Below are positions 29,719 to 47,857 of a DNA stretch of 64,000 nucleotides, piece after piece (the stretch's first letter is position 1; every line of letters starts with the position of its first letter). The notes below the pieces were generated by a model that saw only the letters and a list, made by a program, of their open reading frames with translations, did not search any database and was not told the DNA's origin. Location of the stretch: the NCBI GenBank assembly GCA_004022145.1, contig RCNU01000003.1. The stretch is one strand, 5' to 3'. The DNA is from Paecilomyces variotii. Taxonomy: Eukaryota. The position numbers were made by a program, and so were the translations under genes.

Positions 29719-30702
29719 GTGTTCTCATCAGGGGATCTAGCGATCTGTTGCTTTGAGAGTAATTGGGAAAGGGTCACGTGATTCAACCCCTGTCCCTGAC
29801 AGAGCAATCATAAAACGAATTTGGCCAATCAGAAATAGGATAGCTGTGCATAATAATAGGCAGGATTATGGTAGAATTCCGCATCTCGATGTCCATAGCC
29901 ACCTGTCTTCTGCGGGGCGGGCCCCAAGCACCATGGCGATGTGTCAAGAAGACTAGTATTTGGATTAGAGGAAGAGCCTTGATAACGAGCCTTTCTTCTC
30001 CGGTTTCTCCCAAGTCTCTAAATAACCATACCCCGCGTGTACTTACTGGCGCGTCAGTTATAAGCACTATTAACTTATAAGCTGCAGCCAGGGTTACAAT
30101 ACTGTGTCGCAGTGTTCCAAAGGAGTGAGCTGAGAATAGTCTAGCAACCTGCAGGTAAAAAAAGCCCTTCTTTTGAAGCCAGCATTTTCTTATCTCGCCT
30201 CTGTCAGCTTATTAACGGCAGTGCTTCTAACTATCAGTTAGTTAAGTTGGTTTCCATCTGCATCACCGCCTACTAACTAATCCTAGCTAAGTACCTGGTT
30301 ATCTAGGTAGTCAACAAATTATTAACTGCCAACTTGACCTATCTTGAAATCTAACATGCAGTATAAAACTTCAGACGTCGAAGGTATCACAGAAAGAGCT
30401 GGCATTTCTATGTACTAAGTCGAGGGAGGAAAGGTCGGCAGATAGACGCATGGTATAGAGAGACGCAGGGGGGGAGGGGCGCTGGTTGTTGATAGATCGT
30501 TTCGAGACCATATGGGCCCTGGGGGTCATATTAACTGCGTGTTGGAAGACCACCCCTGGTCTGGCAGGTAATCTGATAAGGTCAGGGTGAGAGTACTACT
30601 CTAATCACATATATATAACTATGAAGCTTACGCAGTTGGATATGTGGTCCATTTGGATGCTTAGTTCCCTTCCTCTTTATATTTGCCCTTTCACTACCTA
30701 TC

Positions 30703-32148
30703 ATGTCCACATCTCTAGAGATTGAGCAGAAATATGCTCTGGTGACCCGTCGGCTGGAGGTTCAAACTGAGACGACTGTACAGCAGTTGCATGCTGTCCT
30801 CAGCAGGCGAGAAGTAGTCAAATATCAATGGAGTATATTGAGAGCCCCCAGGCCCGACTTCTCCCTAGGTATCTATGTCACTGACCACTGTGCCACATGA
30901 ATCAGTCACGGCGCCAACAGGAAAGCGTGAGTGTCCGCGGGTGTCGATATGGATTCCAGTCTGAGAGTTGACTTGACGAACGATAGCACACATTGGATAC
31001 TTGATCCCATTGCTCAAGTTTGCTGATTTCATTCGAGCGGGTGGCGAGGTAAATCCCCTCCTCCAACTCAAGGCCGCGAGGAGCTGACCCTTTCCAGGTC
31101 ATCGTGGAACTCACCGACACGTACGCGTTCCTTGTGAACTACAAAATTCCCTGGGAACAAGTCCTTCACCGCACTGCGTACTATCAGGCTTTGATCACGG
31201 CTGCCTTGAAAGTAGTGGGGATTCCCCTGTCGAAGGTTCAAATTGTGCAAGCGTCCACATATCAGGGAACCTATTCATTTTCGGTGGACTTCTGGAAGCT
31301 TTGCGCCTTGTCTTCCCTGCATGATGTTCGGAGAACAGGCGCGGAGGTCGGATCTTCGACCATGCTAAGCCCCCTCCTCACGCCAATCCTTCAAGAATTG
31401 GCCGAGGTGCACTCAGCAGTGGATGTGCAGCTGGGCGGAAAGGACCAGGTAGGTAGCCTGACTTGGAAATTGGACAATGGCTAGCTAACTGATGCCAAAA
31501 CCACAGCGCGGCATCTTTGAGTTCGGCGAGGAGTTTCTTCCTCGGCTTGGGTATCCCAAACGGGCCCATGTCCTGAATGAAATGTTACCTGGTCTGACTG
31601 GGGACAAAATGTCCTCATCCTATGCGGCTCATACGAAAATCATGTTCCTCGATGATGCGAATACGATCCAAGAAAAGATCGCTGGAGCTGCATGCCCCAT
31701 CGGCGTAGTCGAGGGCAACGCTATCCTACCCATTGTGCAACATATTTTGATGCCGCTCAGGGAGCTACATCTGGCGGATTTCCCTCAGGCTCTTTCCGGT
31801 GAATTGGACACGGCTGATGAGGTGAGCGGCCACCGTGAAGGTGGACAGGCCCCCTTCAATGGTCTGGACGTTCAACCCGGAACCCTTTTCAGTGTCTCCG
31901 TTCGACGAGATGGAGACGGTGGCTGTGAGGAGCATCAGCACTACCGGTCGTATGAAGACCTCGAGCAGGACTATAGGGCGCACCGCATTCCTCCTGACTC
32001 ATTGAAGGCCGCCGTGGCATCTGGCCTTATCGAGGTGCTGGAGCCTTTGCGGCAGATCTATGAAAGCAGCCCGGAGTGGCGCGAGTCAGACCTGCGCGGA
32101 TACCCTGAAGATTGGCCTGTTCCAGCAGCCACTGTAGAACAGGCCTGA
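30703..32148 (+). CDS. Tyrosyl-tRNA synthetase-like paralog (class Ic fold), 401 aa; exons 30703-30832, 30906-30926, 30987-31048, 31098-31448, 31507-32148
   Basis: Spliced TAPTGKPHIGY (HIGH), LKFADFIRAG, GGKDQRGIF, LPRLGYPKRAH, PGLTGDKMSSS (KMSKS); exon lengths sum to 1206 nt in frame. Confidence 0.88.
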
Positions 32149-32716
32149 TCAACATGCTGTCTGATATACTGGTGGTAACATGGTGTTCTTTGTGACAGAC
32201 CCGCTACTTTCTCATGGATTTACGTTTCGAAAGGATCCTCTGATACTGGACCATAGCTAGTCGACCAATATAACCCCTAGCCATTTGACGGCTGAGGATA
32301 CATTATCTAGACCCATGAAGAGTGTTCTGGACAGGCCGTTCAAACGCGCAATCTGCGTATACCAGTCGCTAAAATAGCTGCATGACGGAGCTGACGAAGA
32401 CTAGACTGCGCCATACACACCTTTGTTCTATTTTACTCATCCTACTCTATGATTGTATTATATTTTGCTTCTTAGTACTTCTTTAGTCTGTCATTTCAGA
32501 TGAGGGGAAGTATTACTTCGTAGCGTGCAAATGAAAATGCCAGCCAATACGGTCCTAGAGGAGTGTATAGTCTGTGAAACCGCGTACTTATATCTCCATC
32601 AAGCCGGAGGGCCTGTCTCATCCTCCTGCACAGAAATCCTTTCCATTCATCTGTAGGTTTCAAACCTTACTACATAGACGAGATACACACCTCGAACCAG
32701 GTCGTTTGGCCCCAAG

Positions 32717-33690
32717 ATGACTCGAACAGACGACGACCGGTCGACCCCCCCTGTGACCATTGATCTGGAGCGGCTCAATACGAAGGACCACGCTGAAGCG
32801 CAGAGGCTCCTGCAAGCCGCGCAATCTCCAGGATTCTTCTATCTCGATTTTCGCAATCACGCAGCTACGAATAACCTGGCGGCGCAAACTGAGGACATCT
32901 ATCAGCTGGCGCGCCGCTATTTCGCGCAACCGAGGGAAATGAAGGTGAAGGATGTCCGAAAGGATCAGCCGGCCTCCTGTGATCGAGGGTATTGCCCTGC
33001 TATCTTCTGTTTCGCCAACCGGATTTGTAGGATGATAGGTTAACCGACATGAAATCATTAGGTATAAATTCTGCGAGAGCGACGAGTCGTTTGAGGTATA
33101 TTGTTCCTTCCAGATCGGAGCGATGGAGTCCAAGGGCTAACGAGAATGAGAATTAGATATCATACGATGAAATGAAGCAAGGAACTCTCCACCTGCCTGA
33201 GCTGCTGGGGGAAGAGGCATCCCTGCTGAACACATTTCACAATGAATGCCACTCCGCAGCGCATACGCTTTTGTCATGTCTTGCAGACATGCTTACCCTT
33301 CCCCTGGAGGACTACCATCAGGACGGGGAGCCGAGTGAGACTGGATTCAAACTCGTCGCGGAGCCATCACTAGAAAGGGCCAGTGAGGTGCAAGAAAACA
33401 AACACACCGATAGTGGCACCTTGACGATTCTGTTCTATGACAAATGGGGCCTACAGATCTGTCTCCCCACGCCTGAGAACGAATGGGTGTTTATCCCGCC
33501 TCCCCAACCTGGCTGCGCTTTGGTGCACGGGGGCAACTCGCTGCAGCGCCTATCGAACTATCAACTGCAGTCTCCGTTGCATCGTGTTACTCAGCCTCAG
33601 GATGGAGCGGCGGAGAGGTATTTTCTCTCATACTTTTTGCGACCAGCAAAGACAGTAGCGCGCCATGGCGTCGGGGATTTGCCTGATTAG
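32717..33690 (+). CDS. Fe(II)/2-oxoglutarate-dependent oxygenase (IPNS/DIOX family) #1, 3 exons
   Basis: PVTIDLERL, AAQSPGFFYL (DIOX_N); HTDSGTLTIL (HxD), SPLHRV (distal His), RYFLSYFLRP. Confidence 0.88.
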
Positions 33691-34759
33691 ATTATGTAGT
33701 TAGTTAATGATGGCTTTCTGCCAGTCGATCAAAAAGGAGAACTCCTACTTAGTCTAGACTCTACCTGGATCTTTAACAGTTAACTAAAGACAATTGGTGT
33801 ATGGATCTCGGACTCACCTGTGTTGGTCACTGACTCACGGCACAGTCAGCACTGTTCATGGTTGTTGTCAGTCTTGTGTAACGTCCGGAATAATAATCGA
33901 ATGAATTTGACGGATTCATGTGCTCTCAGGGATCTAGCGTACAATGAAAATTCAAAGCTGAAGAAGAAGAATCGACGAGAGATCTCCGACGAGGAAGTAA
34001 GTTATGCTCGGTGATTCTGCAACGCGGAGTAAACTATTCCAATTTTGTAAATTTTCAAGGCAAATAAACACCAATGATAAATAAGCTAGCGATAGAATTT
34101 CTGAGGATGAGGTTGATAAAACTGACGATATCTAAGTATGATCCAGTGAGAATTCCCCGGAGTAATGAAGTAGTTACTGGGACCTTCAGAAACTCGACCA
34201 ATAGTGTCAACAATAGACTTGATGTCTAGCAGTCCTGCTCCAGCACCACTAAGCTTACGATCATTTGCTGATCCCCCTCCTAACTCCAACCCTATCCCTT
34301 GTCGATGTCTATTATTCCGAAGGCGAAGCCTCGTCCGCGGCCATCCACCAGTCGCACAAGTTGATTTGAGCTCTGGCCAATGTTGGCGCTCCATTGGACA
34401 TGTACTACTTAGGCCTGGACACTTACACATACTCTAGGATCTTGGCTAACGTGCAGAAGTTAATCTGACGTGCAGAATTAGTCGCTCTCAACCACGCGTC
34501 CTTTATCAAACCCTATCGAATGCAGGTGCACCGAAGTAGTATTGCCCGTAGTATTCCATATGCATGATTCAAGCGGATGAAACTGTCGTGGTGGCTAACT
34601 AGGTCTGAAGAAAGCTCCTGTATCGATAGTGATATGTACAGTACTTAATTACATGATATATCTATCCTACTAGAAGAAACCACCGTGTTTCGATCACCCC
34701 CTTTGGGTGTTCCAAGTGTCATTAGTATTCCAGAAAGTGCCACAGAGGTTGATGTGAAG

Positions 34760-35958
34760 ATGTCCGACTTCAAGTTCGTGCCCACCATCGATCTCGCGAT
34801 GTTAGACAACCCGAGCTCCAGGACGCAGCTAGTGCAGCAGCTTCGTCAAGCACTGCTAGACGTGGGCATGTTTTATGTGGCCAACCCTCCATTGAGTCCC
34901 ACGGTAGTTGCGGAGGCCAAAACACAATCCGAGGCCTTTTTTGCACTCCCTTTTGCAGAGAAAACGAAGCTGGACATTGCCAATAGCCCTAGCTTTCTAG
35001 GATACGCGATGGTAAGAGCAGCATTGGACTAGATAAGATCATGGATTTATCACTGATGGCCTGGATAACTGAAGCTAGGGGCAGAGCGAACCAACAATCA
35101 GGTCGATTGGCGGGAGCATCTAACGCTCGCATCGCCTGGTCCTGAATCCATCTCCGGGCCTGTCTACCGGCGCCTTCTAGGGTCTGGTCAATGGCCGTCC
35201 GCCTCGTTGCTTCCCCGGTTTACTCCCGTTTTGCAGACACTCTTGGCCGAGTCAACGGCACTGGTAACGACTCTCCGGCGGTTGATTGCTGAGGCAATCG
35301 GGGTGGACAGTGACAAGCTGGAGTCGTTGTTTGATGCTCACCACCAGCAGTACCGAATCCGACTGATCCGCTATCCGGAGGTAGCAGCCTCCGCCGAGGA
35401 AACCCAGTCGCTAGGTGCCCATCAGGATACGTCCTTTAATACCTTAATCTTTCAGATCGGGGCACAGCACTGCCTGCAAGCGCGCAACAACCACGGCGAG
35501 TGGGTGGACTGTCCTCCGATCCCAGACCAGCCCATCTTTGTCGTCGGTCGAGGCTGCCAGGCGGCAACACATGGTCTTTGCCGGGCCCCATTCCACCGAG
35601 TGATTCCTCCTGCCCCTGGCAGCGGGAGTCGCCTCAGTATTGTGGTCACCACAGGCATCGGATATGATACCCCGCTGAAATCGCCGAAGACCAGTGAAGT
35701 GCTGTCCACGATGCGTACCCAGATTGTAGCCAATAACCCTGGGCATGAGGTGAGTCTGAATGAGGGCCTGGAGGAGGATGACGAATTCGAGACCGTGGGC
35801 ATGAAGGTCTTGCATAAGCTGGCTAAGAGTTATCCCGAGGTGACAAGACGTTGGGTAAGTAATTTGGTGGTTTGGGGATCGAAAACCGGATTAGTTTCAC
35901 GCTGACATGTCTCTATATATACCAGTACCCCGAACTGTTGGTTGAACCCTCCCATTGA
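34760..35958 (+). CDS. Fe(II)/2-oxoglutarate-dependent oxygenase (IPNS/DIOX family) #2, 3 exons
   Basis: VPTIDL, DVGMFYVAN, NSPSFLGY, DWRE; GAHQDTS (HxD), APFHRV, SRLS (RxS); ends WYPELLVEPSH*. Confidence 0.88.
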
Positions 35959-36921
35959 TCATTGACCGTGATGTTTTAAAACTCAGAATGCATAAAGATG
36001 TCACATTCGAGTACAGTCTGCACGCTAGACGTGCCACAGAATATCGCCCTAAGTGATAATTAACGCGAGCAAGCTGGAGCACACTTAACTAGTTAAAATT
36101 ATGTAACTTACATAAGAATTGCAGACGAGGTCACCTCCAAGTTAATCTTATGAGCTACTAATTAAGCTTGGGGGGTCTCTATCTACGTGCAATATGTTAT
36201 GTTGGGAGATCTGTTGGAATTATTTAGTGTCCTTCCAATCTAACAGGAGAGTGAGGTTGTCTTCCACAATAATCATCCTGATCCGCGGCTTCCTGTACAT
36301 AGTCAGGTGTCGGAATCTGGGGGCAGGTGGCATAGCGGTATAAGCGTCACGGTGGCAGGCTTTTAGCCCTCTTCCTCCTGCTTCATTCCGTGGTGCCTCT
36401 TGAGATCTAGAGGGAAAGAGGATTGAAGATCACGGGTTTGAATCCCATTAGCTGGCAACAATAACGCTATCTGTAACAAGACTTAGCTAGACTGGGTAGG
36501 GATGTCTAGGCAAGGTTTACTACAGGCGGTGGCTGGGGAATCACCAATCTACCATGCAACGACATGCTTGGAAGATCTATCGTACAACACTAAAGCCTAT
36601 CACGCTTACTTTGCATCACACCGTCCTGTGAAGAGGTAGCTAGATCGGGGCCATTTCATAATACAACCGTTACTACTCCGTTACTTCACGCATAGAGATA
36701 ACCCCAGCGAGCTGTGAGGGGAAGTGCATGCCCTTCTCAGCTTTGTTCAATTGTTGCCTCGCATGGACTAGTTGGATCTTACGAGGCGGGGAGTTGAATA
36801 TCTTCTGCGCTTCAAGGGCAACTCATCCCCATTATTGCTTGGTACCTAAATGGTTATAAAAGTTAGCTGAATCTGTAGCCTGATCCAGCTTTTGCACCCT
36901 GAGCTCCTAGTAGTTTGCGCC

Positions 36922-37955
36922 ATGATGTGGACAATTCAGGATTCACCGCGCCCTCCTCCGCTACTTGTCCTTGGCCTGAGTCGTACAGGCGGCACGTGTG
37001 AGTCTCCATCCTTAAGCCTTTGACAGACCTACTGATAGCATGCGTCGACAATAGCTCTAGCAACCGCGCTGGGTCTGCTCGGCTACCAAAGATTGTACGA
37101 TCTTGATGATGTCGCCCACGGAGGTCCAGAACACGCCGACTTCTGGCTTCAAGCCGTCCAAAAGAAACTATCCGGAAAGGAGGAATTCAGCTATGATTTC
37201 GACCAGCTCTTACATGGATATGATGTAGGTCTCGTGTCCCCTATTCCCTGGATCCCTGATCATTCTTCTCAGCCATGGGTTTGCTCTTATGACGATGGTT
37301 TATTGGGCGATCTAATATACACAGGGCGTCCGGAACATCCCCTTCGCAGCTTTCGCAGCTGAGCTGATTGCCCACTATCCATCCAGCAAGGTGATTCTTC
37401 CCACTCGGGATGTCGACAGCTGGCACATGTGAGTGATGTCTGCACCGCTCGCAAGTTTTAAAGCACCATGGCGCGATATGTCAAGACTTACAGGGAACCA
37501 AATACAGCTCCTGTCTTACAACTGTCTACCAGCGCTCTAGAGACCCGATCTTACAGTTCCTGGCCCTGTTCGATACCAATTCGCGAGTGTATGCCAATCT
37601 CCTTCGGGGCCTCCAGCAGATCCTGTACAAGGGCGACTTTCCGAACTATGGGAAGACGGCGTTTTACGAACACAATGAATATATTCGGCGCAACGTAAAG
37701 CCAGGAAATCTTCTTGAGTACAATGTGGAGCAAGGTTGGGAGCCCTTATGTGACTTCCTTGAAAAGGAAGTACCAATGTGTGCCTTTCCGCGAAACAATG
37801 ATCGGAACATCTTCTGGCAAGGGTGTCGGAAAAGGGATAAACGGGTGGCGAAAAAGGTGCTGATTCGTGCTCTCCCACTCTGTAGTATGCTCCTTATTGG
37901 TCTGGTGAGCTGGCTGTTACTGGGGGCAGGAGATCCAATTGACAGGGTCAAATGA
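36922..37955 (+). CDS. Sulfotransferase-family (Sulfotransfer_4-like) P-loop protein, multi-exon
   Basis: LVLGLSRTGG motif, FDQLLHGYD, ELIAHYPSSKVILPTRDVDSW, NLLEYNVEQGWEPLCDFLEKEVP..FPRNN, C-terminal hydrophobic helix. Confidence 0.8.
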
Positions 37956-38806
37956 ATCTCCCAGATAAGCTGTCGGATCCTGCCTACAGGCAGACCTCCT
38001 GTCGGGTTTCTCCCACGCCTTCTAGCTCCACTCACAGAGACAAATAGGCTGAGATAGTTGCTAGAGAATCCAAGCTCAGCGAGCTTCGCTCCAGATAAGC
38101 TTCTTGGGCAAGAACATCATTTTCCCAAGTATTAGTTATCCAAATAACTTTTTTGAGAAGATTAGCTTGACAAATCGCAAGCTATCATGCTGCGAGAACA
38201 ATGCACATTACATAAAACCAAGATATAGTTATGTTTCTTTGTATAATACATACGCGGCCCTTGGTATGTGGTTCCTGCCAGCTGGCTCTGATATTTAGCC
38301 AGTGTCCTTTGTTATTTTTCTCTTCCCCCGTTCTTCCTTTCTATACATATATGTCCGCTTGATCGAATCAATTGCGTTCGGCCCTTTACACCTTACCTAA
38401 GCTGGAGAAAATCTAGCATAAAGCTAGGAGCGTGAGATATATAATCACGTTCCCCAGTTAGCATGTGACATAATAGCGCTCAGTATAGGAGACTAGCGAT
38501 TAGTCTTAATACCATACTCCTGCTTACCATACTATTTGAATATGATCTATTGTTCAAGTTTGCCAATTTAATATATTGTACATATATTCATACTATCACG
38601 GACCCATATTGTTCCGCCCCCGATCTCCCAAAGTACCTACCCAAAACAAACCCCTCTTTCCCTTCCCTCCTTCTAAATTTAATGTACTCGTAGAGTGGCC
38701 TATCTACTTCGATAAACTACCTTGAGACTGTTATAGAAGACCACTAAGGTATTATTGTGGCCTATCCCCCGTCCGCTTTCTTCCATCCATATCGTCAGCG
38801 GTGGAA

Positions 38807-39894
38807 ATGGATGCATCCCGAGATACTGCGGTCGAGGCATCGGCCTATTCGACAGATCAAATCATTGCCTGGCTCAAACATATCCGCCTCCCGAATTCAT
38901 ATACAGCGTATATTGACGACCCGGGGAGCTTCCCGAAGACTTATGAATCGCTCCAGACAGTGATGAGATGTCAGATTTCTCGATTTCCATATGAGAATCT
39001 CTCCGTGCATTATTCACCGACCCATATCGTTGATATTCGCCCCGAGGTCCTCTATGAGAAACTGATGGGTCACAATGGGGCCAAAGGACGAGGCGGCTAC
39101 TGTATGGAACTCAGCATTTTTTTCCATCACATGCTCCGTGGCCTGGGATTCCACGTATACATGACCGCCGTCCGAATCCGCCCCCGGACTGACGGGGTGC
39201 CTGGGGGAGAATATGGAGGATTGTACGTCCTTCTATTATACGATCTTCCTTATCTACCCACCTGACAAAAGATTCCCGGACAGCTAATGTGCATGATAGT
39301 ACCCATATCAACAACATTGTGCATCTGCCTTCCGGAAAGAGATTCTCCGTTGATGTTGGGTTTGGTGGAGATGGCCCTATCAGCCCACTTCCCTTGGACG
39401 AACCAGGGCGAGCCATTCCAAATATCGGCCGGCAGGAAGTTCGACTCATCCAAGACTACATCCCCAGACAGAGATTCCCGGAACCGAAGCTCTGGATTTA
39501 CCAGTACCGTAACGGGCCTGAGCAGGAATGGAACTCGTTCTATAGCTTTGCCGAAATGGAATTTTTTCAGGATGATTTTGAGGTGATGAATTGGTTTACC
39601 AGTGCAAAGAGCTTACACCGCTGGACCGTGCTAGTGGTGCGATTTCTACGGATGGCCGAAGACGTACTTTTTTCAGCTCGTTCTGACTTACCGCTAGACC
39701 AGGACATCACTATTACTGGTAAAGTCATGTTGGTGGACAATGCCATCAAAGTCAACCTGGGCGGCAAGACGCGCGTCGTGCACACGCTGAGCTCAGAAAA
39801 GGATCGACGCCAGGCACTCAAAGATTACTTTGGCATTTCTTTAACAGATGAAGAAGCGCGGGGTATCATAGGGTGGGATCAGGCACTCAGTTGA
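38807..39894 (+). CDS. Arylamine N-acetyltransferase (Cys-His-Asp triad), 1 intron
   Basis: FPYENL, GRGGYCMEL (Cys), THINNIV (His), VDVGFGG (Asp). Confidence 0.92.
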
Positions 39895-40661
39895 TCCGAT
39901 AGTTATCTACCATGAACAATTTCTTATGTAAGAATTCAGGGGCAAAGTGTTGTTAGAGTGAATACTAGACTTATTTGATTTCTCTCTCTCTCTCTTCAGT
40001 TTCCATAACTCATTGACAGTTCTATATTCAGCTTGGTCAGGCTTGAGGTAAAAGTATATTGTGCAACCCCATTAATACTAATTATCTGGTGACCAGGGTT
40101 CTGATTTCATCGGCGCGGCTGGAACCGAAGGCCTATTATTATTACAAAGAAACACCAGGAGTCTACCAAGCGATACAGCTTGATGAATAAGGCGAGTTGC
40201 AACTGTTGTGACATTCTCTCACTTATTGTGGCGCACCGTCTCCTGCATCAGGAAGGTCAGCGGATGCAAGTTGTCAGACCAACACACTGCCCCCCATGTA
40301 TTAATTGCAGCATGGGTTCTTATCCTCATTAGGTGGGCTGCTTCTTCGGGTCGTCGTGCTAGACATTCTGGACCTCGTAGGATCGTTAGCTCTCTGGGGT
40401 TCCCATCCCATCTAATTCTGATTGGAATAACATATCAGCAACTCCTGTCCTAGTATCTTTCTGTAATTCTAGGGGATCCCTCCCCATCATTCGGGACGCC
40501 CTAGTAACAGTATGGGGAAACCAGTTCGGGTACAGTACAACTGAAATGTACTCCTGGTCTTGTCAGGATTGCATGAAGTGAGGTGAATACATATTGAGAC
40601 CAGGGTGCGTGGCACGATTTATCTCATCTGCTCCCGACAGATCGACGGCCAACCGACCTCA

Positions 40662-42259
40662 ATGTCGCTTTCACCTCATTCAGTGACGAGAAGAGTGTAT
40701 ATGGAGTCCAAAGGCGAGCCGTTAGTTGTTGATCGGATCATCCCAATGGAACCAGATGACAAGACAACACCTGGACACCCTCTCGACAGCGTTGTGGAAA
40801 CAACACCGGTCGTGATAATCGACTTCGATGAGTCCATCCAACACCCTCACAATTGGCCGAATGTCCAACGATGGTCCATCCTGATCCTCAACACTCTGAT
40901 CAGCCTCCTGGTGAACCTGTCCACAACGATTGTAGCTCCCCTGCTGGAGACTATCTCAGCAGAATTTCACATGGACCCCCAGGTGGAAGGACCGCTGGTG
41001 ATGTCGAGCTATGTGCTGACCCTCGCACTCGGGCCCTTGCTCCTGGCGCCCTTCGGGGAGCTATATGGGCGCGTGGTCCTGATACAGTGCGGCCTGCTAG
41101 TATATCTGGTGTTCAATCTGGCATGCGGATTTGCAACGACCAAGGCCCAGCTCATCGCCTTCCGCGTGTTGGCGGGGATTGGGAGCGGAGCGGCCCCCGT
41201 GGTAAGTCTTGGATCGCTTCCTCACTATTATTCTATGTTTTCCTGCTCAGAGACTCGGTGCAGGTGGGCATCGCCATGATTAGCGACTGCTTCCGCAATG
41301 ATGAACGAGGGACCGCCTTGGGGGTCTTGAACATGGCTTTTATTCTGGCTGCTCCCCTGGGGGCCATCGTGGGAGGATTGGCCGCCCAATCTACGTCCTG
41401 GCGATTCATTTTCTTCGCACCCTCCATCGCGGCGGGATTGCTCGTCCTCGTTGGGCTCTTTGTGTACCACGAATCCTATCCACCGGTCATCCTCTCACGC
41501 AAGAAAAGACAATTCCAGCACGACGGCCATCTCGTGTGCAAAACGCCCTATGACGATCGGCACCCGACCATCGCAGACCTCTACTATAAGACCATCATCC
41601 GACCCGTATACTTCCTCACCACGCAGCCCATCATTCAGGTCCTCTCGCTCTACACGGGCTATATTTACGGCTTGACGTATCTCATCTTCTCCACCTTTAC
41701 CAGCTTGTGGGAACAGCAATACCACGAAACAGCCTCGATCGCTTCATTGCACTACATCGCCGCAGGGATCGGTTATTTCATCGGGATTGTCGCCTGCATC
41801 CTGTTCGCGGATCGAATTTACCGTGGGCTGAAAGGGAAAAACAATGATATCGGGCGACCAGAGTTCCGGATCCCGATGATGTCTGTGAGTGCTATCCTCA
41901 TCCCGACGAGCCTCTTCTGGTATGGCTGGACGGCACAAGAGCACATCCAGTGGGTGGTGCCAAATCTGGCGATTGTCCTCACCATGTGTGGCTGTACCAT
42001 TGTCTTTCAATGTACGACGGCCTACTGTATCGAAGCCTACCCACTGTATGCGGCGAGTGCCTCCGCAGCGTCCTTTTTATGCCGGGGGCTCTGTGCTTTT
42101 GGGTTTCCCTTATTTGCACCCAGCCTGTATGCACGGCTGGGGTATGGCTGGGGCGATAGCATACTAGGGTTTGTGGCGCTGATAATTAGCGGGCTGGTGC
42201 CCGTGGTGCTGTGGAAATTTGGGGTTCGACTGCGGAAAATAAGTAGCTATGCCATCTAG
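40662..42259 (+). CDS. MFS drug:H+ antiporter (DHA1-like), 1 intron; start uncertain (40662/40701/40746)
   Basis: HPHNWP, GPLLLAPFGELYGR, AFRVLAGIG, ISDCFRNDERG, WRFIF, ESYPPVIL, PEFRIP, LYARLGYGWG. Confidence 0.9.
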
Positions 42260-42387
42260 ATAGAATTGTCGGGTTGCTTCTTCTTTCTCCCTTGATAAAC
42301 CATGTACGTATCTGGCTCGAACAGCGCAGATGGTGCGTAGATGATTAAAGAGCTCTACAACGCCTAATAATACTGGTAGACAACCGA

Positions 42388-42389
<2 letters not shown>

Positions 42390-42418
<29 letters not shown>
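42390..42418 (+). repeat. Poly(A)29 tract about 130 nt downstream of the MFS stop codon
   Basis: Run of A seen directly. Confidence 0.9.
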
Positions 42419-42420
<2 letters not shown>

Positions 42421-44334
42421 ATGATAGATGTATCAAGGGCATCATATGATATTCAAAACATTATCTAGTTTACATTCCATTTCAGTTGATTTTGGAAATA
42501 CAGTGGATTCATCCTTGTGGGCGTGGCAATTAGTTAACTAGGTAACTACTTCCTATGGACATGCTGATTTGTAACCTAGCCCAGACCAAATTGGTTCACA
42601 GAAAAGATAAGACAGCAAAATATTCCATCCTCAGACTACAGCCAAAATATTTTCTTGTTGCCTTTGCTGATCTATCAAAGTGGTTTAACCGGATATTGAG
42701 GTTAGGAAGATCGGATCTTACTCCAACGACTTACTTCTCGTTTCTAGCAATGCCCGATCATGCTGAAGATGGTGATTTTAAGCAGCCCCTGTTGGGAAAG
42801 GTTGATGATAATAATAATAATAATAATAATGGTTTGGTGGGCGCCAACAATAGAGAAAATCGGAGAGATTAAGGTGACAAGCGTCATCTCGGACTATTCT
42901 CCACCGCTCTTCTCCTGTAAGTTGTTTCTTAGACATGTTACTTTCCTATTCCTGAGTTTCTCTTTTTGTTTTTTTTTTTTTCCCTTTCTCGAAATAGCTT
43001 ACATCCGACCATATCTCACGACCTTGTTTTCTTTCGGTGCCCCTAGGGGCTCCAGTAGTGGTCGCCCGCGCCAGCAGCCAGCTTAGTCAGCAGAGTAGTG
43101 GCCAGATAGATCAGTTCAGCTCGATTGAGCCCCTAGATAGTTCCTCAATCAAGCATCTTCGTCAGCTCCAAGATTTTCCTTTTACATGGTCTTCAGCTTC
43201 ACTGCCAAGCTGTTAATCTTTCCGTACCTCCTATTTGAGTGGGAGGCATAAAAGCGATAATTTTGGGTAAGTTCTTGACAAGACTAATTACTTTGCGGCT
43301 CATCTTGTATCATATATATATATATACAGTCATAGCTGACTAGGCAGAAGTAGCTTAGAGTCGAGGTCATGGCGAGTACCTAAGCCGAATAGGGAATTTC
43401 TATAGTTATAGTAGGTACCTACTTTAACAATAACGAGAAGGATTGAAGACTACTTAGTACGTACATTGAACCTGCTGGGTTCCAGAGAGCTGCTATTCCA
43501 ATTGTAGTGGCAAAGTTTCAAGCTGGGAATTATGTCGGCGCCTAGAGCTTACCTTGCATAGTGTGATTGCGTATGCATGCCTCAGAGAGGCCAAGAAAGA
43601 CACCTAGAGAATAGGTGTTTTAGTCGAGTGGTAAGGTATATCAGATTCAGCCATTTAAATAGTCTTGAGGTCCCTGACAGACAGTGTTTTCAACAAGTGG
43701 TAGAGAACGCACCGGAGACCCCGGCCTGTTACCTGACTGTCACCTGCTGGAAATCAGCCACTAGGGCTGACAGATGCAGAATACGAATCCTACTGTTGTT
43801 AGCTGTGAGGGATACCTTGCTTGAAAGCTTAATACTAAATGCAACTGTCATGAAAGATGTTGTCGACTCCATCTGACGTGCATCAGCCCCTGGCTTTGGA
43901 GGGTCATATGGTTATTATCAAAAGTTAGCATAGCATAGAACTTTGGCTGGGGGAGAGGAGGGGGCGGAGCAAAATCGTGAGTATATTAAGAAGGCTGAGA
44001 TATTTGTATCTCAGCTCTGGTCTAGTTTAGCCATGGACCCGTTTGGAGATAAAGCACATAAGGGAAGTTAGTGGACTACTGTAATAGCTTTACAAGAAAG
44101 GTTGATAACCAATGGATGACAGGCAATGGTGGTCTTGCTCTTAGCCCTTGCAAGCACTTCAAGCTCAATAAATCAGGTCTCTGGTTTGGAACATGTACAG
44201 ATAGATAGATGGCCCCATGTCTTTTGCCATTGGCCCACATATATAACAGGACTGATTGCAACATTCTGGCGCAATCTGAGCAGTTTCTTTTGTGATTCCC
44301 TCCACACTGGGGTGCAGCAAGAATTTGCTTCTAG

Positions 44335-46515
44335 ATGGATATCGCGATCTGTATCCCCCTAGCTCTTCTCTATGGAGCGTGCGCGCTTCTCCTTATCCAC
44401 GGCCTAGGCTTCCAACTGCATATGCGGACCATAAAGAACAGTGAATCCTTCACATCCCCAATCGATATCCAGGATGGTCGTTCAGGTCCCTCAGGACAGG
44501 GATCGAATGCAGACCGCCTGACTATATCTCAGCAATATGATGAGTATAAGGAGATGTATTTCAAACTCCAGAATGTGGAACGGCATCCGGAAGTGATGCC
44601 GCGCGCCAAACATCTTCTACTTGCGTTCCTGTCTGAAGCAATTCTTTGCGCCCATGCGCAGCATAGTGCAATCCTCGCCATTGAGCGATTTTCCCCCAGC
44701 GCGATCGCCGCATTTATGCGCCGCGAGCTGGATCACATCACGCATCAATGGCAACAGTATCTTCAGCGGCGAAAAGAGGGCCACGCCCGGGAGTTGTTTT
44801 CAGATGCGGATGCCGCAAAACGGTGGCTCGTAAAAAAGGCCCCAGTCAAGCTGGTGGACGGCGCGTGGCTTGGTCAAGTCCACACCGTGGGGATTCCATT
44901 TGCATACCGTTCCATTACCAAGGACGCCTGGCAGGTGCTCTCGGAGGAGCTTGGGGACGGCTATCTGGAGAAGAACCATGTCCACGTGTATCAGAAGCTA
45001 ATGCGTCAAATTGGCGTGGATCTCCCGGCTGCCGACTCGGCGGAGTTTATACAAGCCATGGACAATGATCCTTGCATTTGGAAAGGTGCAATTGCGCAAC
45101 TTCTCATAGCCTTGTTTCCAAGTGAATTCCTGCCGGAGACTCTGGGATTCAATATGCATTTCGAGATGTTGACCCTGGAAACCATGGTGGCCGCTACGGA
45201 GCTGCGCGAGGTTCACCTCGATCCCTCCTATTTCAATTTGCACATTTCAATCGACAACGCCGATTCGGGACATATGGCTATGGCGAGTCACATTGTCATG
45301 AAATACCTGTCGACCGTGCAGGCGGTCGAGGGAGCAGATGCCGCCCAGCAGGCCTGGAAGCGCGTCCAGGCGGGATTTGTGCTCTCCAAGCATCTCCCGT
45401 CCCACCAGCGCAGTTTCCCCAACCAAGGTCCCCTTGCCATAGATCTTATGAGGATCTTTCAAGCTAAATCCGTTGCATGCCATCGACTGCATGACAACTG
45501 CCGAGTGAGATTGGGCGGCCGGTCACTGAGCACCTGGCTCAACCCGGACCATTTCCAGCGGGAGCGATGGCAGACGGATTTTCTGGACTGTCTCAGCAAC
45601 GATAGGCTGTGGGTGCGAAAAGGTGACAGTGCAAGCAGCCGACTAGTCCAGCAATGTGTCTGGGGTGGACCCATGTTTGGTGCGTTCACCGATTCTGAAG
45701 TGGCCACGATCAAGAACTGGATCGATAGTTTGGCACCCGATAGTCCAATGACATATTGGCATTTCATCGGATGGTCTTGCAGCTCTGATGAATCCCAAGT
45801 CAGCGCCAGTGGCCCAGTCAATCTCGAAACCGTTTTCCGAGACGCGAGGATTTCTCCTAGTCACCTTCCTCCCCCAGTCCGGAGCATCGATCTCAGCTTT
45901 GTCCCAATCCTCCATAAATTGATCCCACTTTGGTTCGTCCACCCATGTCTGCTCGAGTCGTGTCTACGGGTTCCAGTTAGGACCACCAACTCGATCGGCT
46001 GTTCGGTGGTTCGTCTTCTTCGCGCCCAGTATGGCTTTGATGAAACCACTGGGATCGCCGGAATGGATGAGATACGCCGGGCAGGATGGGTCGATTTGAC
46101 TGAGATTGGCATGGAGATTATCTCTCATGTCGAGGACATGCCTTCCAAACCCAAGGATGTCGCGGATGTCCTAGAGCGGTGGCCGTCGGCATTTGCAGAG
46201 ACGATGCTCGCTTTGGCAATGCGACCCCAGCAGTGTTTCTGGTCCCTGCTGGGTCTCACCCAAGCATTCGTTCATCTGCACCACTGGCTTGCCCTGTCAC
46301 CGTTGCTTTCGCGGAGGACGAGAGCTATCGTCCACCGTATTGCACTGCAGGAACAAGTGAGTTTGGATACGTGTATGAAGGGACTTCAGGAGCAGGATCT
46401 GGCATATGAGGATTTTTGGAAAGGGTATGAGCTTGGCCGGGTTGAAATTGACGGTTGTTTTGAGAAACGCAAATCAATCTCTTCGCTTCAATCCACTATG
46501 AGAAAAGGAGCCTGA
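44335..46515 (+). CDS. Heme-oxygenase-like diiron oxidase (HDO; 'iron-containing redox enzyme' family), intronless, 726 aa
   Basis: APVKLVDGAWLG, WQVLSEELGDG..KNHVHVY (E..H), LGFNMHFE, YFNLHISIDNADSGH (H..D..H), WGGPMFGAF. Confidence 0.8.
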   Translation: MDIAICIPLALLYGACALLLIHGLGFQLHMRTIKNSESFTSPIDIQDGRSGPSGQGSNADRLTISQQYDEYKEMYFKLQNVERHPEVMPRAKHLLLAFLSEAILCAHAQHSAILAIERFSPSAIAAFMRRELDHITHQWQQYLQRRKEGHARELFSDADAAKRWLVKKAPVKLVDGAWLGQVHTVGIPFAYRSITKDAWQVLSEELGDGYLEKNHVHVYQKLMRQIGVDLPAADSAEFIQAMDNDPCIWKGAIAQLLIALFPSEFLPETLGFNMHFEMLTLETMVAATELREVHLDPSYFNLHISIDNADSGHMAMASHIVMKYLSTVQAVEGADAAQQAWKRVQAGFVLSKHLPSHQRSFPNQGPLAIDLMRIFQAKSVACHRLHDNCRVRLGGRSLSTWLNPDHFQRERWQTDFLDCLSNDRLWVRKGDSASSRLVQQCVWGGPMFGAFTDSEVATIKNWIDSLAPDSPMTYWHFIGWSCSSDESQVSASGPVNLETVFRDARISPSHLPPPVRSIDLSFVPILHKLIPLWFVHPCLLESCLRVPVRTTNSIGCSVVRLLRAQYGFDETTGIAGMDEIRRAGWVDLTEIGMEIISHVEDMPSKPKDVADVLERWPSAFAETMLALAMRPQQCFWSLLGLTQAFVHLHHWLALSPLLSRRTRAIVHRIALQEQVSLDTCMKGLQEQDLAYEDFWKGYELGRVEIDGCFEKRKSISSLQSTMRKGA

Positions 46516-47857
46516 AGTCATGGCCGGTTTGTTATTAGGCAAATACTACAGGAGCATTTGAAACCTCGGAAATGAGATAACTAATCATAGCAAGAAATTG
46601 TGGTAACCCTGAATATCATCACTCTACCACAGTTAGTAGTTGTCGTTGGCGAAACGATATAAAATGAAGATAACAGTTCATTTTACGCTACTCACTCGCG
46701 CCTTCATCTGATTGGACGTCGTCATCTGGATCTCACGTGCTCTTTACTGCCTTCCTTTTTCGTCTGATCAGGTGATCTTCCCTCCCTAATAATCAAAACA
46801 AACAACTATTTTCTACCTGTCTAACCTATTATTTTACTACCTCTACTAATCTGCCAGCTTTATGGGATTTCCTAATCGATATACCCCATTCGCTCTACTA
46901 GTTATCTATTATACGTCGATTTAACCCAATAGGGGAGACTATAGGCGATCACTTACAGGTTCCTGTAAGGTTAAGATATGATGAATTCGAAGGTTTAGGC
47001 ACACAATACAGTACGATCATTTCATTAATGTATACCGGAGCCTGAATCCAGGCCTCTGAATACCCAGATGAAGTATTGGATTGTCCACCCTTTCCCTTTC
47101 CAGCCTCTCTGCCAAGCTCCCAGCACCTGCGGTACTTCTTGCATCGGGCATCAGACCTGCGGCAGCATTCAAACCACCCATGGGGTTGTTGGCGCTGGAA
47201 CCGTTGGAAGAACGGACCCGCGAGTACTGATACGTAATCAGTATACCATCCCAAAAGGCACAACGACGAAACCCTCTTTCCGGATTTCTTCCGACCTGAT
47301 CCGCAGCGATGGCTTGGCCAGCCGCTGGAGCACTATTGTTGGCTTTTGTGAGGGGTCCTAGGTGAGTAAGTTAATTGCTGCCCGGCAAGCTGCATAATCA
47401 GTATTTACTTATCTAGAGGAGGGGTAGGGTTTAGCGTCATTGCAATCAACAAGGATTGAATCAGGATTTCCAGATGAAAAATTGGCCCACTGAATATGTA
47501 ACGGGTTATTGCAGCAGACACGGGAGAAAATTGAATTGAGAAGTAGAATAAACTTCATGTTCACTTAGTTTCCAAAGCCTTGGACTAAATTCATGGTCGA
47601 TGTCGGAAAAGGTCAACTGAAATAATAAAATGACGGCTCCTTAGAGGTCTGGCCCCTAAGTCTGATATAAAATCATTCCATATTCGCGCTGGTATGTGCA
47701 TATGGAATAGCCATTTAGATCATTTCCAAGGAACTCACACAAAACCGAGTATACAGGTCACTTGACCCTTCGCGTAGGGTCTTAAATATCGTATCGTTCG
47801 CCCTTGCCTTACGCTATTTTCATCATTGCTTCCGTCCCATCCCAATGTACCGATACA

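Follow-up and report, generated by a model that had tools for sequence, protein, structure and literature searches.

The locus examined here raises the question of whether seven neighboring fungal genes with no NRPS or PKS core form a biosynthetic unit, and of what such a unit might do. It lies in a 64,000-nucleotide stretch of the Paecilomyces variotii genome (contig RCNU01000003.1), referred to below as the window. An earlier, sequence-only reading had proposed seven consecutive plus-strand genes at 30703-46515, and all seven were found, with the two ends falling exactly on the start codon (ATG) of the TyrRS-like gene and the stop codon of the gene for a heme-oxygenase-like diiron oxygenase (HDO). 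By Pfam assignment, the set comprises the TyrRS-like protein, two Fe/2OG oxygenases (2OG1 and 2OG2), a Sulfotransfer_4 protein (ST), a NAT-fold acyltransferase, an MFS transporter and the HDO (Table 1); for the transporter, which the earlier reading had called DHA1, the assignment is to MFS_1. As had been described, housekeeping genes border the run on both sides, namely DNA polymerase lambda-like, P4-ATPase, RNase PH, DHFR, CLC channel and GH43 genes upstream and isochorismatase and eIF5 genes downstream, and neither an NRPS nor a PKS domain was present in any ORF scanned within the window. The same reading had placed an APH kinase and a terpene synthase at the flanks. The terpene synthase is clear and the APH match is marginal, just below the PF01636 cut-off, and membership in the cluster is unsupported for both, as ORF clustering placed neither of them beside the HDO in any of 80 metagenome loci. 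No tRNA gene was detected in the 28-50 kb region of the window, no cluster-specific transcription factor or other shared regulator was found within the window, and none of the seven genes matched in Pfam a known family of aminoacyl-tRNA-dependent transferases (Fem/GNAT, CDPS, LanB-like). The literature searched contained no published account of this cluster.

Table 1. Features of the P. variotii locus, in positions of the window
Feature	Position	Strand	Product and domain evidence
Flanking APH-like ORF	28084..29724	-	PF01636, 22.7 bits vs cut-off 23.2
TyrRS-like paralogue	30703..32148	+	401 aa; PF00579 tRNA-synt_1b, E 5e-9 and 7e-11 on two exons
TyrRS-like exons	30703-30832, 30906-30926, 30987-31048, 31098-31448, 31507-32148	+	
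Fe/2OG oxygenase 1 (2OG1)	32717..33690	+	279 aa, three exons; DIOX_N + 2OG-FeII_Oxy
Fe/2OG oxygenase 2 (2OG2)	34760..35958	+	354 aa, three exons; DIOX_N + 2OG-FeII_Oxy
Sulfotransfer_4 protein (ST)	36922..37955	+	265 aa, four exons; PF17784, E 3e-22
NAT-fold acyltransferase	38807..39894	+	336 aa, two exons; PF00797 Acetyltransf_2, E 1e-13 and 3e-11
MFS transporter	40662..42259	+	511 aa, two exons; MFS_1, E 3e-28
HDO protein	44335..46515	+	726 aa, single exon; PF14518 Haem_oxygenas_2, E 9e-31
Flanking terpene synthase	47786..49363	+	PF19086, E 6e-9

Spliced RNA contigs with 100% identity were recovered for all six intron-bearing genes from two RNA runs of one study (X17 and X18), and exon structures were taken from the GT..AG joints in these contigs together with three inferred 5' introns of the TyrRS-like gene. 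Joints present in both runs cover the TyrRS-like intron at 31449-31506, the 2OG2 introns at 35012-35074 and 35855-35925, the three ST introns, the MFS intron at 41202-41263 and the three introns of the flanking terpene synthase, and X18 supplied those of 2OG1 (32989-33061 and 33096-33156) and NAT (39223-39299). The three 5' introns of the TyrRS-like gene were inferred from GT..AG sites, and the resulting product agrees in length and N-terminus with the annotated P. variotii protein P0121, which is 99% identical to a 213-aa query from the last exon. The HxD...H and RxS motifs are readable in the 2OG1 translation, the 2OG2 transcript has a loose poly(A) end at 36010, and the C-terminal tail of the ST protein is hydrophobic. 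The RNA contigs attest that transcripts are present and say nothing of co-regulation.

The claim that the genes act as one unit was examined in other named fungi. In P. variotii, the locus tags run from _5297 (TyrRS) to _5303 (HDO), and subsets of the genes lie side by side in five other named species, as judged from accession order and from mis-merged gene models. By accession order, Aspergillus avenaceus carries ST (KAE8153819), TyrRS-like (..821), HDO (..822) and NAT (..823) genes; Arthroderma uncinatum carries HDO (KAF3483848), TyrRS-like (..849) and NAT (..851) genes; Nannizzia gypsea pairs HDO (EFQ99677) with NAT (EFQ99681), and Ophiocordyceps camponoti-saundersi pairs ST (CP533_2288) with HDO (CP533_2291). 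The mis-merged models of Purpureocillium lilacinum show the order TyrRS-like, 2OG1, ST, NAT found in P. variotii, at 58-65% identity. The HDO of P. lilacinum (OAQ93982) lies apart from this block (OAQ92604-92608), and the Ophiocordyceps NAT is about 20 genes away from the HDO. Viewed by gene, ST orthologues with 57-62% identity occur near an HDO or TyrRS-like gene in A. avenaceus, O. camponoti-saundersi and P. lilacinum, and NAT orthologues adjoin cluster genes in A. avenaceus, A. uncinatum, N. gypsea and P. lilacinum. Synteny thus spans three orders, and the one-unit claim is supported by it and by a recurrent HDO, 2OG and synthetase-paralogue cassette in metagenomes.

The metagenome set consisted of 80 loci found with the HDO, representing 54 distinct groups. 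A 2OG1 homologue stands beside the HDO in 13 of the 54 groups and a synthetase paralogue in eight, four TyrRS-like and four AspRS-like; restricting the count to the 17 groups whose sequence extends 4 kb or more on both sides of the HDO leaves six with a synthetase paralogue. In the four distinct TyrRS-like groups, no more than 10 kb separates the synthetase gene from the HDO. A tree of the HDO gathers all five rows with an AspRS-like neighbor into one eight-row clade (support 96); the contigs behind the other three rows end too soon to reveal neighbors. Homologues of ST, NAT, MFS and 2OG2 occur in none of the 80 loci, so the extended gene set appears lineage-specific. On our best reading, the evolutionary core is a three-gene cassette of a membrane-anchored HDO, 2OG1 and an aminoacyl-tRNA-synthetase paralogue, which in the P. 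variotii lineage was extended by the ST, the NAT-fold acyltransferase, 2OG2 and the MFS exporter. The lack of accessory genes in the metagenome loci, the lack of a shared regulator within the window and RNA contigs that speak to presence rather than co-regulation would all fit seven functionally unrelated genes that are merely neighbors. Such chance juxtaposition is contradicted by the synteny, with adjacent subsets in five other species of three orders and a shared order in P. lilacinum, and four TyrRS-family and four AspRS-like groups beside the HDO are far above expectation for few-copy families; we regard it as very improbable.

The earlier reading had called the synthetase paralogue a repurposed aminoacyl-tRNA synthetase. 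Its PHIGY (HIGH) and KMSSS motifs are intact, and its C-terminal domain can be aligned with the yeast and human TyrRS counterparts. Of the 11 coding variants listed for the gene within the species, nine are synonymous. In the alignment, human TyrRS residues Y39, H77, Y166 and D173 are replaced by Q, Y, T and A. Position 166 is T in all six ascomycete paralogues of alignment A1, none of which has D at position 173, and is C in the four metagenome paralogues; between species, position 39 is Q, H or L and position 173 is A, G, S, L or, once, D. The P. variotii protein scored 159.8 and 78.1 bits against NCBIfam TyrRS equivalog cut-offs of 220 and 113.8, and the paralogues overall (152-160 and 78-93 bits) fell below both, which a canonical control, P0127, passed with 269.9 and 187.9 bits. 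Because the pocket residues are changed and the scores lie under these cut-offs, the enzyme can be described as repurposed or at least diverged. To our knowledge, the residues contacting the phenol hydroxyl are universally conserved in TyrRS. Laboratory variants of Methanocaldococcus jannaschii TyrRS for para-substituted phenylalanines are changed at Y32 and D158, which we take to correspond to human Y39 and D173, and the variant for O-methyl-tyrosine presumably carries Y32Q and D158A, the same replacements as in the P. variotii protein. Many engineered M. jannaschii variants were among the solved relatives of the TyrRS-like protein; unlike these, the natural paralogues are also altered at Y166 and H77 (human numbering).

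The same features bear on a second reading, in which the paralogue duplicates a self-resistance target and the HDO, 2OG1 and tailoring enzymes convert tyrosine (or, in the sister cassettes, aspartate) into a toxic analogue or a synthetase inhibitor. The cluster synthetase would then reject the analogue and sustain the producer's translation, and it could also be biosynthetic, as proposed for SbzA. The intact ATP motifs and the C-terminal domain alignable with yeast and human TyrRS speak for this reading, which the retained tRNA-binding domain fits equally well; the retained N-terminal OB-fold region of the AspRS-like paralogues and the mostly synonymous within-species variation of the TyrRS-like gene also favor it. 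The synthetase type also shifts with the HDO clade, as target-matched resistance would. PMC13149037 describes translation-quality-control genes as marking amino-acid-analogue clusters, and PMC13518217 describes SbzA, from the altemicidin/SB-203208 cluster, as an IleRS that passes Ile on within the pathway, has normal IleRS activity and is also viewed as a resistance protein. As portrayed there, the SbzA cluster resembles that of P. variotii in having no recognizable core (PMC13518217); SbzA differs in being bacterial and in its typical IleRS activity, in contrast to fungal paralogues that are without the tyrosine-hydroxyl-binding residues and score under the TyrRS equivalog cut-offs. A tyrosine-charging TyrRS would be expected to keep its phenol-hydroxyl residues, but Y39 and D173 are replaced, variably between species, and the paralogues fall well under cut-offs that canonical eukaryotic TyrRS passes. 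We consider self-resistance a possible but rather doubtful account of the synthetase.

The HDO comprises an N-terminal helix (residues 3-34), the HDO domain (about 58-359) and a family-specific C-terminal helical domain (about 400-726). In agreement with the earlier assignment, its AlphaFold model (pLDDT 84.9) lies nearest to the N-oxygenases RohS, SznF and HrmI, with VIA Z values for residues 58-359 of 18.2, 17.7 and 17.3, respectively, and rmsd values of 3.3-3.5 Å over 250-258 aligned residues; the next family reached a Z of 14.0. The modeled fold is thus closest to the N-oxygenase clade, and the same fold does not show the same activity. RohS is reported to convert 2-aminoimidazole to the nitro compound and HrmI/BelK to N-oxygenate lysine. 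All 50 of 50 homologues share nine residues without change (E204, E205, D208, H215, E268, E277, H303, D307 and H313), and 49 of them keep D310. Neither phmmer nor the family profile retrieved a solved relative by sequence. Identity to RohS, the SznF central domain and HrmI (BelK) is only 10-16%, and the 726-aa protein differs from them in its added N-terminal helix and ascomycete-only C-terminal domain, the latter (about 330 aa) having Atlas matches only within the same ascomycete family. In the passages searched, a 2026 HDO review makes no mention of fungal members. In some P. variotii strains, a 326-bp deletion truncates the protein to 596 aa.

The tailoring enzymes allow a third reading, a catabolic or detoxification cluster in which NAT, ST, the 2OGs and the MFS protein oxidize, conjugate and export an environmental arylamine or an aromatic amino-acid-like xenobiotic. 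Conjugation is a classic role of NAT-fold enzymes and sulfotransferases, which suits this reading. The Cys, His and Asp motifs of the NAT align with fungal NAT 7qi3 (E 1e-30), a weak match to N-hydroxyarylamine O-acetyltransferase was obtained, and orthologues sharing 55-77% identity with it occur widely across Aspergillus, Trichoderma and Penicillium, as for a general detoxification enzyme; the lack of a cluster-specific transcription factor and of a canonical core is also compatible. The NAT matches included the bacterial NAT-fold amide synthase GdmF (E 4e-12), and the best solved relatives of ST by sequence were 9kf1 (E 5e-9) and SgdX2 8y9p (E 1e-7). Fungal arylamine NATs and the amide synthases GdmF and RifF share PF00797 with the cluster NAT, which differs from them in that its gene belongs to a conserved block also holding a synthetase paralogue. 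Detoxification would leave unexplained this pocket-remodeled paralogue and the recurrence of the HDO, 2OG and synthetase cassette in metagenome loci without NAT or ST, where it adjoins genes of biosynthesis type (a PSD-like decarboxylase, an Asn_synthase domain and a P450). Such a function seems improbable to us.

With moderate confidence, we favor a genuine, conserved and transcribed non-canonical specialized-metabolism cluster with an HDO, 2OG and repurposed-synthetase core. The overall sequence-only interpretation is thereby retained for the conserved unit, the diverged synthetase and the N-oxygenase-like HDO, and finds no support for the membership of the APH-like ORF and the terpene synthase. 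Counting against the favored reading are the lack of a known aminoacyl-tRNA-dependent transferase family among the seven genes and of a tRNA gene at 28-50 kb, the accessory genes missing from all 80 metagenome loci, the detached HDO of P. lilacinum and NAT of Ophiocordyceps, and the truncated HDO of some P. variotii strains. The seven genes probably make a small molecule, by a route that would fall outside standard genome-mining rules. The synthetase paralogue would still use ATP, since HIGH and KMSSS are kept, and probably still binds tRNA, since the C-terminal domain is kept; because the tyrosine pocket is remodeled, it would activate an amino acid other than tyrosine, perhaps an aromatic analogue that the pathway itself supplies. 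The HDO may N-oxygenate the amino group of an amino-acid-derived substrate, which 2OG1 may hydroxylate or desaturate. NAT and ST could then acylate and sulfonate an amine or N-hydroxy group, either to cap it or to create a leaving group, and the MFS protein would export the product.

A close parallel is valanimycin, whose vlm cluster reportedly encodes its own SerRS, VlmL. Passages of PMC11705231 describe its biosynthesis in Streptomyces viridifaciens from seryl-tRNA with the diiron enzyme VlmB, and thus a likeness in which a non-NRPS/PKS cluster pairs a tRNA-activated amino acid with an N-acting heme-oxygenase-like diiron oxygenase. In contrast, the P. variotii cluster is fungal and its synthetase is of the TyrRS type (class I) with a remodeled pocket, and sister cassettes carry an AspRS-type (class II) enzyme. 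Unlike the valanimycin pathway, the seven genes include no VlmA-like transferase, VlmO-like membrane N-N enzyme or flavin N-hydroxylase, and the constant third partner in the cassette is a 2OG oxygenase.

Stop-to-stop open reading frames of the window, which is intron-bearing fungal DNA, were scanned against Pfam, and the scan reproduced the seven-gene list of the sequence-only reading. These genes encode a tyrosyl-tRNA synthetase (TyrRS)-like protein, two Fe/2OG oxygenases (2OG1 and 2OG2), a sulfotransferase-type protein (ST), an N-acyltransferase (NAT), an MFS protein and a heme-oxygenase-like diiron protein (HDO). The borders claimed in that reading proved exact, and the ordinary housekeeping genes it had placed beyond the flanks were confirmed on both sides. 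Of the two flanking genes, the APH on the opposite strand to the left is a marginal match, its 22.7 bits falling just below the cut-off of 23.2, and a terpene synthase (PF19086) lies to the right; relatives of neither were found beside any HDO upon open reading frame clustering of 80 metagenome loci. Pfam identified no recognised core synthase (NRPS, PKS, terpene, DMATS or RiPP) among the seven genes, which also include no aminoacyl-tRNA-dependent transferase of known family, and no tRNA genes or Rfam families were found at window positions 28-50 kb. Fungal genome mining looks for core enzymes (NRPS, PKS and terpene synthases, for example), leaving core-less clusters largely invisible. No regulator was found within the cluster, the closest fungal-specific transcription-factor domain lying 15 kb downstream of it, past eIF5. 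The 2-kb gap between the MFS and HDO genes is AT-rich, with low-complexity runs and no annotated gene, and locus tags are consecutive across it.

Coordinates and family assignments of the cluster, its surroundings and related metagenome loci
Feature	Sequence	Coordinates	Strand	Family	Product (aa)	Remark
Seven-gene cluster	window	30703-46515	+			first ATG to last stop
TyrRS-like	window		+	PF00579	401	
2OG1	window		+	DIOX_N/2OG-FeII_Oxy	279	
2OG2	window		+	DIOX_N/2OG-FeII_Oxy	354	
ST	window		+	PF17784 (Sulfotransfer_4)	265	
NAT	window		+	PF00797	336	
MFS	window		+	MFS_1	511	
HDO	window		+	PF14518 (Haem_oxygenas_2), E 9e-31	726	single ORF
MFS-HDO gap	window	42300-44330				
Segment skipped in HDO gene	window	46123-46448				
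Contig-break patches	window	33708-33747; 38045-38098; 43032-43173; 47637-47667				short, intergenic
Transcription-factor domain	window	61413-62129	-	PF04082		
AspRS-like gene (example)	L069	5801-6613	-			
Other cassette neighbour	L021	5188-6648	-			
Other cassette neighbour	L038	18446-19354	+			
Other cassette neighbours	L073	2324-3760; 17564-18814	-			

Four RNA sequencing runs (X15-X18), all food-fermentation metatranscriptomes, were compared with window positions 29000-48999. X17 and X18, two runs of one study, yielded contigs that are 100% identical to the window and show GT..AG joints. Among the joints listed, spliced introns number at least one in the TyrRS-like gene, at least two each in 2OG1 (X18 only) and 2OG2, at least three in ST, at least one each in NAT (X18 only) and MFS, and at least three in the terpene synthase. 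The contigs of X15 and X16 are all unspliced, at ~98.8% identity; they are taken as DNA or pre-mRNA from another strain and were not counted as expression. The same samples contain spliced transcripts of all six intron-bearing genes of the cluster, which shows presence, co-regulation being a separate matter; the evidence comes from one study, in which contig depth cannot rank genes. Once the RNA joints and three small inferred 5' introns of the TyrRS-like gene are applied, none of the seven translations contains a stop, the TyrRS-like model agreeing with the annotated P. variotii protein (P0121) and the NAT model having the same length as the database protein P0178. Contigs of several runs break at four short intergenic patches, where loose ends are unrelated and depth goes up. 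These patches, which are not repeated elsewhere in the window, may be small genome-dispersed elements or sequence common to other organisms in the samples.

The TyrRS-like protein matches the class I W/Y catalytic domain, with PHIGY (the HIGH motif) and KMSSS invariant in all seven aligned sequences, and among solved structures human and yeast TyrRS come closest to it (E 3e-70). Nevertheless, P0121 falls below both NCBIfam TyrRS equivalog cut-offs, scoring 159.8 bits against 220 for NF006330 and 78.1 against 113.8 for TIGR00234. The proteins P0122 and P0125 behaved similarly, the tested paralogues spanning 152-160 and 78-93 bits, respectively, and the canonical basidiomycete TyrRS used as control (P0127) passed both models with 269.9 and 187.9 bits. 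Compared to human TyrRS (1n3l numbering), the window's protein shows the changes Y39 to Q, L72 to E, A74 to T, H77 to Y, D81 to V, Y166 to T and D173 to A, and keeps Q170 and Q188. We take Y39 and D173 of the human enzyme to bind the phenol hydroxyl and Y166 and Q170 to bind the amino group, with Q188 presumably also among the tyrosine-binding residues. In the alignment of TyrRS-like proteins (A1), position 166 is Thr in all six ascomycete paralogues and position 173 is Asp in none of them, P0127 having Tyr and Asp; in the four metagenome paralogues position 166 is Cys and position 173 is S, D, A and A. In its C-terminal stretch, the window's protein aligns with yeast TyrRS (domain 2, 28.9 bits) and human TyrRS and has invariant columns in common with P0127, and nine of the 11 strain-to-strain coding differences listed for the gene are synonymous. 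On the basis of sequence, we conclude that the paralogue is most likely a maintained, ATP-using enzyme distinct from canonical TyrRS, and that it can probably still bind tRNA.

The main alternative is that the synthetase paralogue is a resistance copy, which we regard as rather unlikely. A resistance enzyme that did nothing but charge tyrosine is made less likely by the loss of the hydroxyl-binding residues. SbzA shows that biosynthetic and resistance roles can coexist (PMC13518217). A cyclodipeptide synthase, an enzyme with a class Ic-like fold without ATP motifs, was also considered and was rejected since the HIGH and KMSKS motifs are both present.

Sequence searches for solved relatives of the HDO gave no phmmer hits up to E 1 and only chance-level matches with the family profile (best E 0.12), and Foldseek against the PDB returned nothing at E <= 0.001, with HDO rows at E 0.05-0.1 and probability ~1. 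The structural model, built from 50 homologues, has a mean pLDDT of 84.9; its N-terminal helix spans residues 3-34 and its body is helical throughout. VIA-align comparison of residues 58-359 with 48,161 chains placed RohS (Z 18.2), SznF (17.7) and HrmI (17.3) first, with FlcD (14.0), CADD (11.2) and BesC (10.7) below them and Z at 5.9 among unrelated rows by rank 50. The modeled fold is closest to that of RohS, SznF and HrmI, all of them N-oxygenases; N-oxygenation of an amino-acid-derived amine would be our best guess for the chemistry. Candidate metal ligands that are invariant or nearly so in the 50 homologues are E204/E205, H215, E268/E277, H303, D307, D310 and H313. By VIA, the similarity of the C-terminal ~330 residues to heme-oxygenase-like bundles is weak, at Z 8-9, within helical-bundle noise; an Atlas search with this domain by structure returned the same ascomycete family only, and an Atlas search by features gave no usable match. 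Inside the HDO gene, a stretch of 326 bases is missing from the contigs of X17 and X18, with the joint at codon 596. The skipped segment has non-intron ends (TC..AT), and some P. variotii strains have an annotated 596-aa HDO (P0167) ending exactly at this joint, indicating not a splice but an allele whose deletion cuts the C-terminal domain short. In another strain the protein is 685 aa (P0171).

In order to examine which genes accompany the HDO elsewhere, metagenome contigs were scanned with the HDO alignment, giving 80 loci. A tblastn search with the seven models found 2OG1 in 17 and the TyrRS-like protein in five of the 80, and 2OG2, ST, NAT and MFS in none. All-against-all clustering of six-frame open reading frames raised the 2OG1 count to 20 loci and identified two further neighbors, a class II synthetase (PF00152) in six loci, with yeast AspRS as best solved relative (E 1e-27, the alignment taking in the N-terminal OB-fold region), and a divergently transcribed methyltransferase (PF05175) in 19. 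After collapsing the HDOs at >=95% identity, eight of 54 groups have a synthetase paralogue (four Tyr-type and four Asp-type), and six of these eight also have 2OG1. In seven groups 2OG1 occurs alone and in 15 the methyltransferase is present, and the 24 without synthetase, 2OG1 or methyltransferase are mostly on short contigs; where at least 4 kb is present on both sides of the HDO, a synthetase paralogue was found in six of 17 groups. The HDO tree (FastTree, local supports only) comprises 78 rows: the window, 14 named proteins and the 63 loci left after dropping those 17 of the 80 whose longest HDO open reading frame is below 550 aa. One clade (support 99) unites the methyltransferase-linked HDOs, and all five rows with an AspRS-like neighbor fall in one eight-row clade (support 96), the other three rows being on contigs too short for neighbors. 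The window HDO groups with those of Arthroderma uncinatum, Nannizzia gypsea, Aspergillus avenaceus, Ophiocordyceps and Purpureocillium (support 98).

Six loci (L045, L052, L053, L069, L072 and L073) combine the AspRS-like gene with a 2OG1 homologue and the HDO, which is the window's cassette of HDO, 2OG1 and synthetase paralogue with the other synthetase class. A separate HDO clade has an MTS-type methyltransferase (PF05175) directly upstream and divergent, without a synthetase or 2OG gene (L002-L004, L022, L027, L031, L033-L037, L040, L041, L043, L048, L051, L057, L067, L070 and L071), and several of these loci have a GH62 gene downstream. Other neighbors of the cassette are a phosphatidylserine-decarboxylase-like protein, which sits between 2OG1 and the TyrRS-like gene, an Asn_synthase domain, a P450, an MFS transporter and an EF-Tu/eEF1A-like GTPase that could be a simple housekeeping gene.

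The cluster genes were also found to be kept together across species: in six genomes of five other named species, Purpureocillium accounting for two of the genomes, and in the eight metagenome HDO groups with a synthetase paralogue. Searching with the TyrRS-like protein identified eight proteins at E <= 1e-5 among 1048 candidates, the best of which, from P. variotii, is 99% identical. Locus tags of the TyrRS-like and HDO genes are exactly six apart in several P. variotii strains (e.g., _5297 and _5303), indicating seven consecutive genes. Adjacency in other genera was read from consecutive accession numbers: in A. avenaceus ST is KAE8153819, followed by the TyrRS-like protein (..821), the HDO (..822) and NAT (..823); in A. 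uncinatum the HDO is KAF3483848, with the TyrRS-like protein at ..849 and NAT at ..851; in N. gypsea the HDO and NAT are EFQ99677 and EFQ99681; and in Ophiocordyceps camponoti-saundersi ST and the HDO are CP533_2288 and CP533_2291. The HDO P0002 and the TyrRS-like protein P0126 come from Logan contigs of equal length, 15,599 bp. Two mis-merged Purpureocillium lilacinum models, one joining the TyrRS-like protein to the 2OG1 N-terminus and the other the 2OG1 C-terminus to ST and NAT, at 58-65% identity, indicate the same gene order as in the window. However, two cases speak against a fixed unit, as the P. lilacinum HDO is elsewhere (OAQ93982, compared to OAQ92604-92608) and the Ophiocordyceps NAT is ~20 genes away from the HDO.

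The HxD...H triad and RxS are legible in the translations of both 2OG enzymes, which match PF03171 and PF14226 and whose relatives among solved structures, ACC oxidase and thymine dioxygenase, are generic. In NAT, RGGYCME, THIN and VDVGFG align with RGGRCME, NHML and VDVGMG of 7qi3, corresponding to the Cys-His-Asp triad. The ST match is spread over two exons (E 2e-6 and 3e-22), with a legible N-terminal GLSRTGGTS loop that is presumably the PAPS loop. In the literature searched, no description was found of SgdX2 (8y9p), one of the best solved relatives of ST by sequence. In the proposed pathway, the HDO, by N-oxygenation, and 2OG1 would oxidize an amino-acid-derived substrate, the synthetase paralogue would activate a modified or alternative amino acid, NAT and ST would acylate and sulfonate an amine or N-hydroxy group, and the MFS protein would export the product.

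By analogy, the nearest known logic is that of valanimycin, whose pathway uses seryl-tRNA and the diiron enzyme VlmB (PMC11705231). The window cluster likewise encodes a synthetase and a diiron HDO together. However, compared by Pfam with the components listed in that source, its seven genes include no VlmA-like aminoacyl-tRNA transferase, VlmO-like membrane N-N enzyme or VlmH-type flavin N-hydroxylase, and the cluster is therefore not a member of the valanimycin system. Neither a fungal HDO nor a fungal HDO pathway or cluster of this kind was found in the searched literature, which covers few subscription journals, and a term search of a March 2026 HDO review found no fungal HDO pathway. Given these absences, the window cluster is regarded as a fungal variation on synthetase-paralogue/HDO clusters, with a 2OG partner that stays constant and a synthetase module that can be exchanged.

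We tentatively propose, as a possibility well short of an even chance, that the HDO, the 2OG oxygenase and the synthetase paralogue define a class of fungal clusters that can be mined for and has so far gone unrecognised. The pocket-remodelled synthetase would be a natural 'orthogonal' synthetase, dedicated to charging tRNA or another acceptor with a non-proteinogenic amino acid modified by the oxygenases, from which a small molecule is assembled, being TyrRS-type or AspRS-type by lineage and switching with its HDO. If true, this would be the first fungal pathway that is both tRNA-synthetase-driven and HDO-dependent. A naturally re-specified TyrRS would be of interest to genetic-code engineers, and since the producer is found in food fermentations, the putative N-oxygenated metabolite is worth identifying. 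The searchable signature is a 700-750-aa ascomycete HDO adjoining a 2OG oxygenase and a synthetase paralogue with D-x-Y-A-F-L-V-N, in which Thr or Cys replaces Tyr166; this combination of HDO, 2OG oxygenase and synthetase was found repeatedly across Pezizomycotina.

Finally, a second paralogue-type TyrRS-like gene is present in A. avenaceus on a different contig, where it is annotated as cytoplasmic TyrRS (proteins noted are P0124 from A. avenaceus and P0123 from P. lilacinum). In public annotations the TyrRS-like paralogues are all named tyrosyl-tRNA synthetase and several HDOs are named 'ABC transporter', and both names are misleading.
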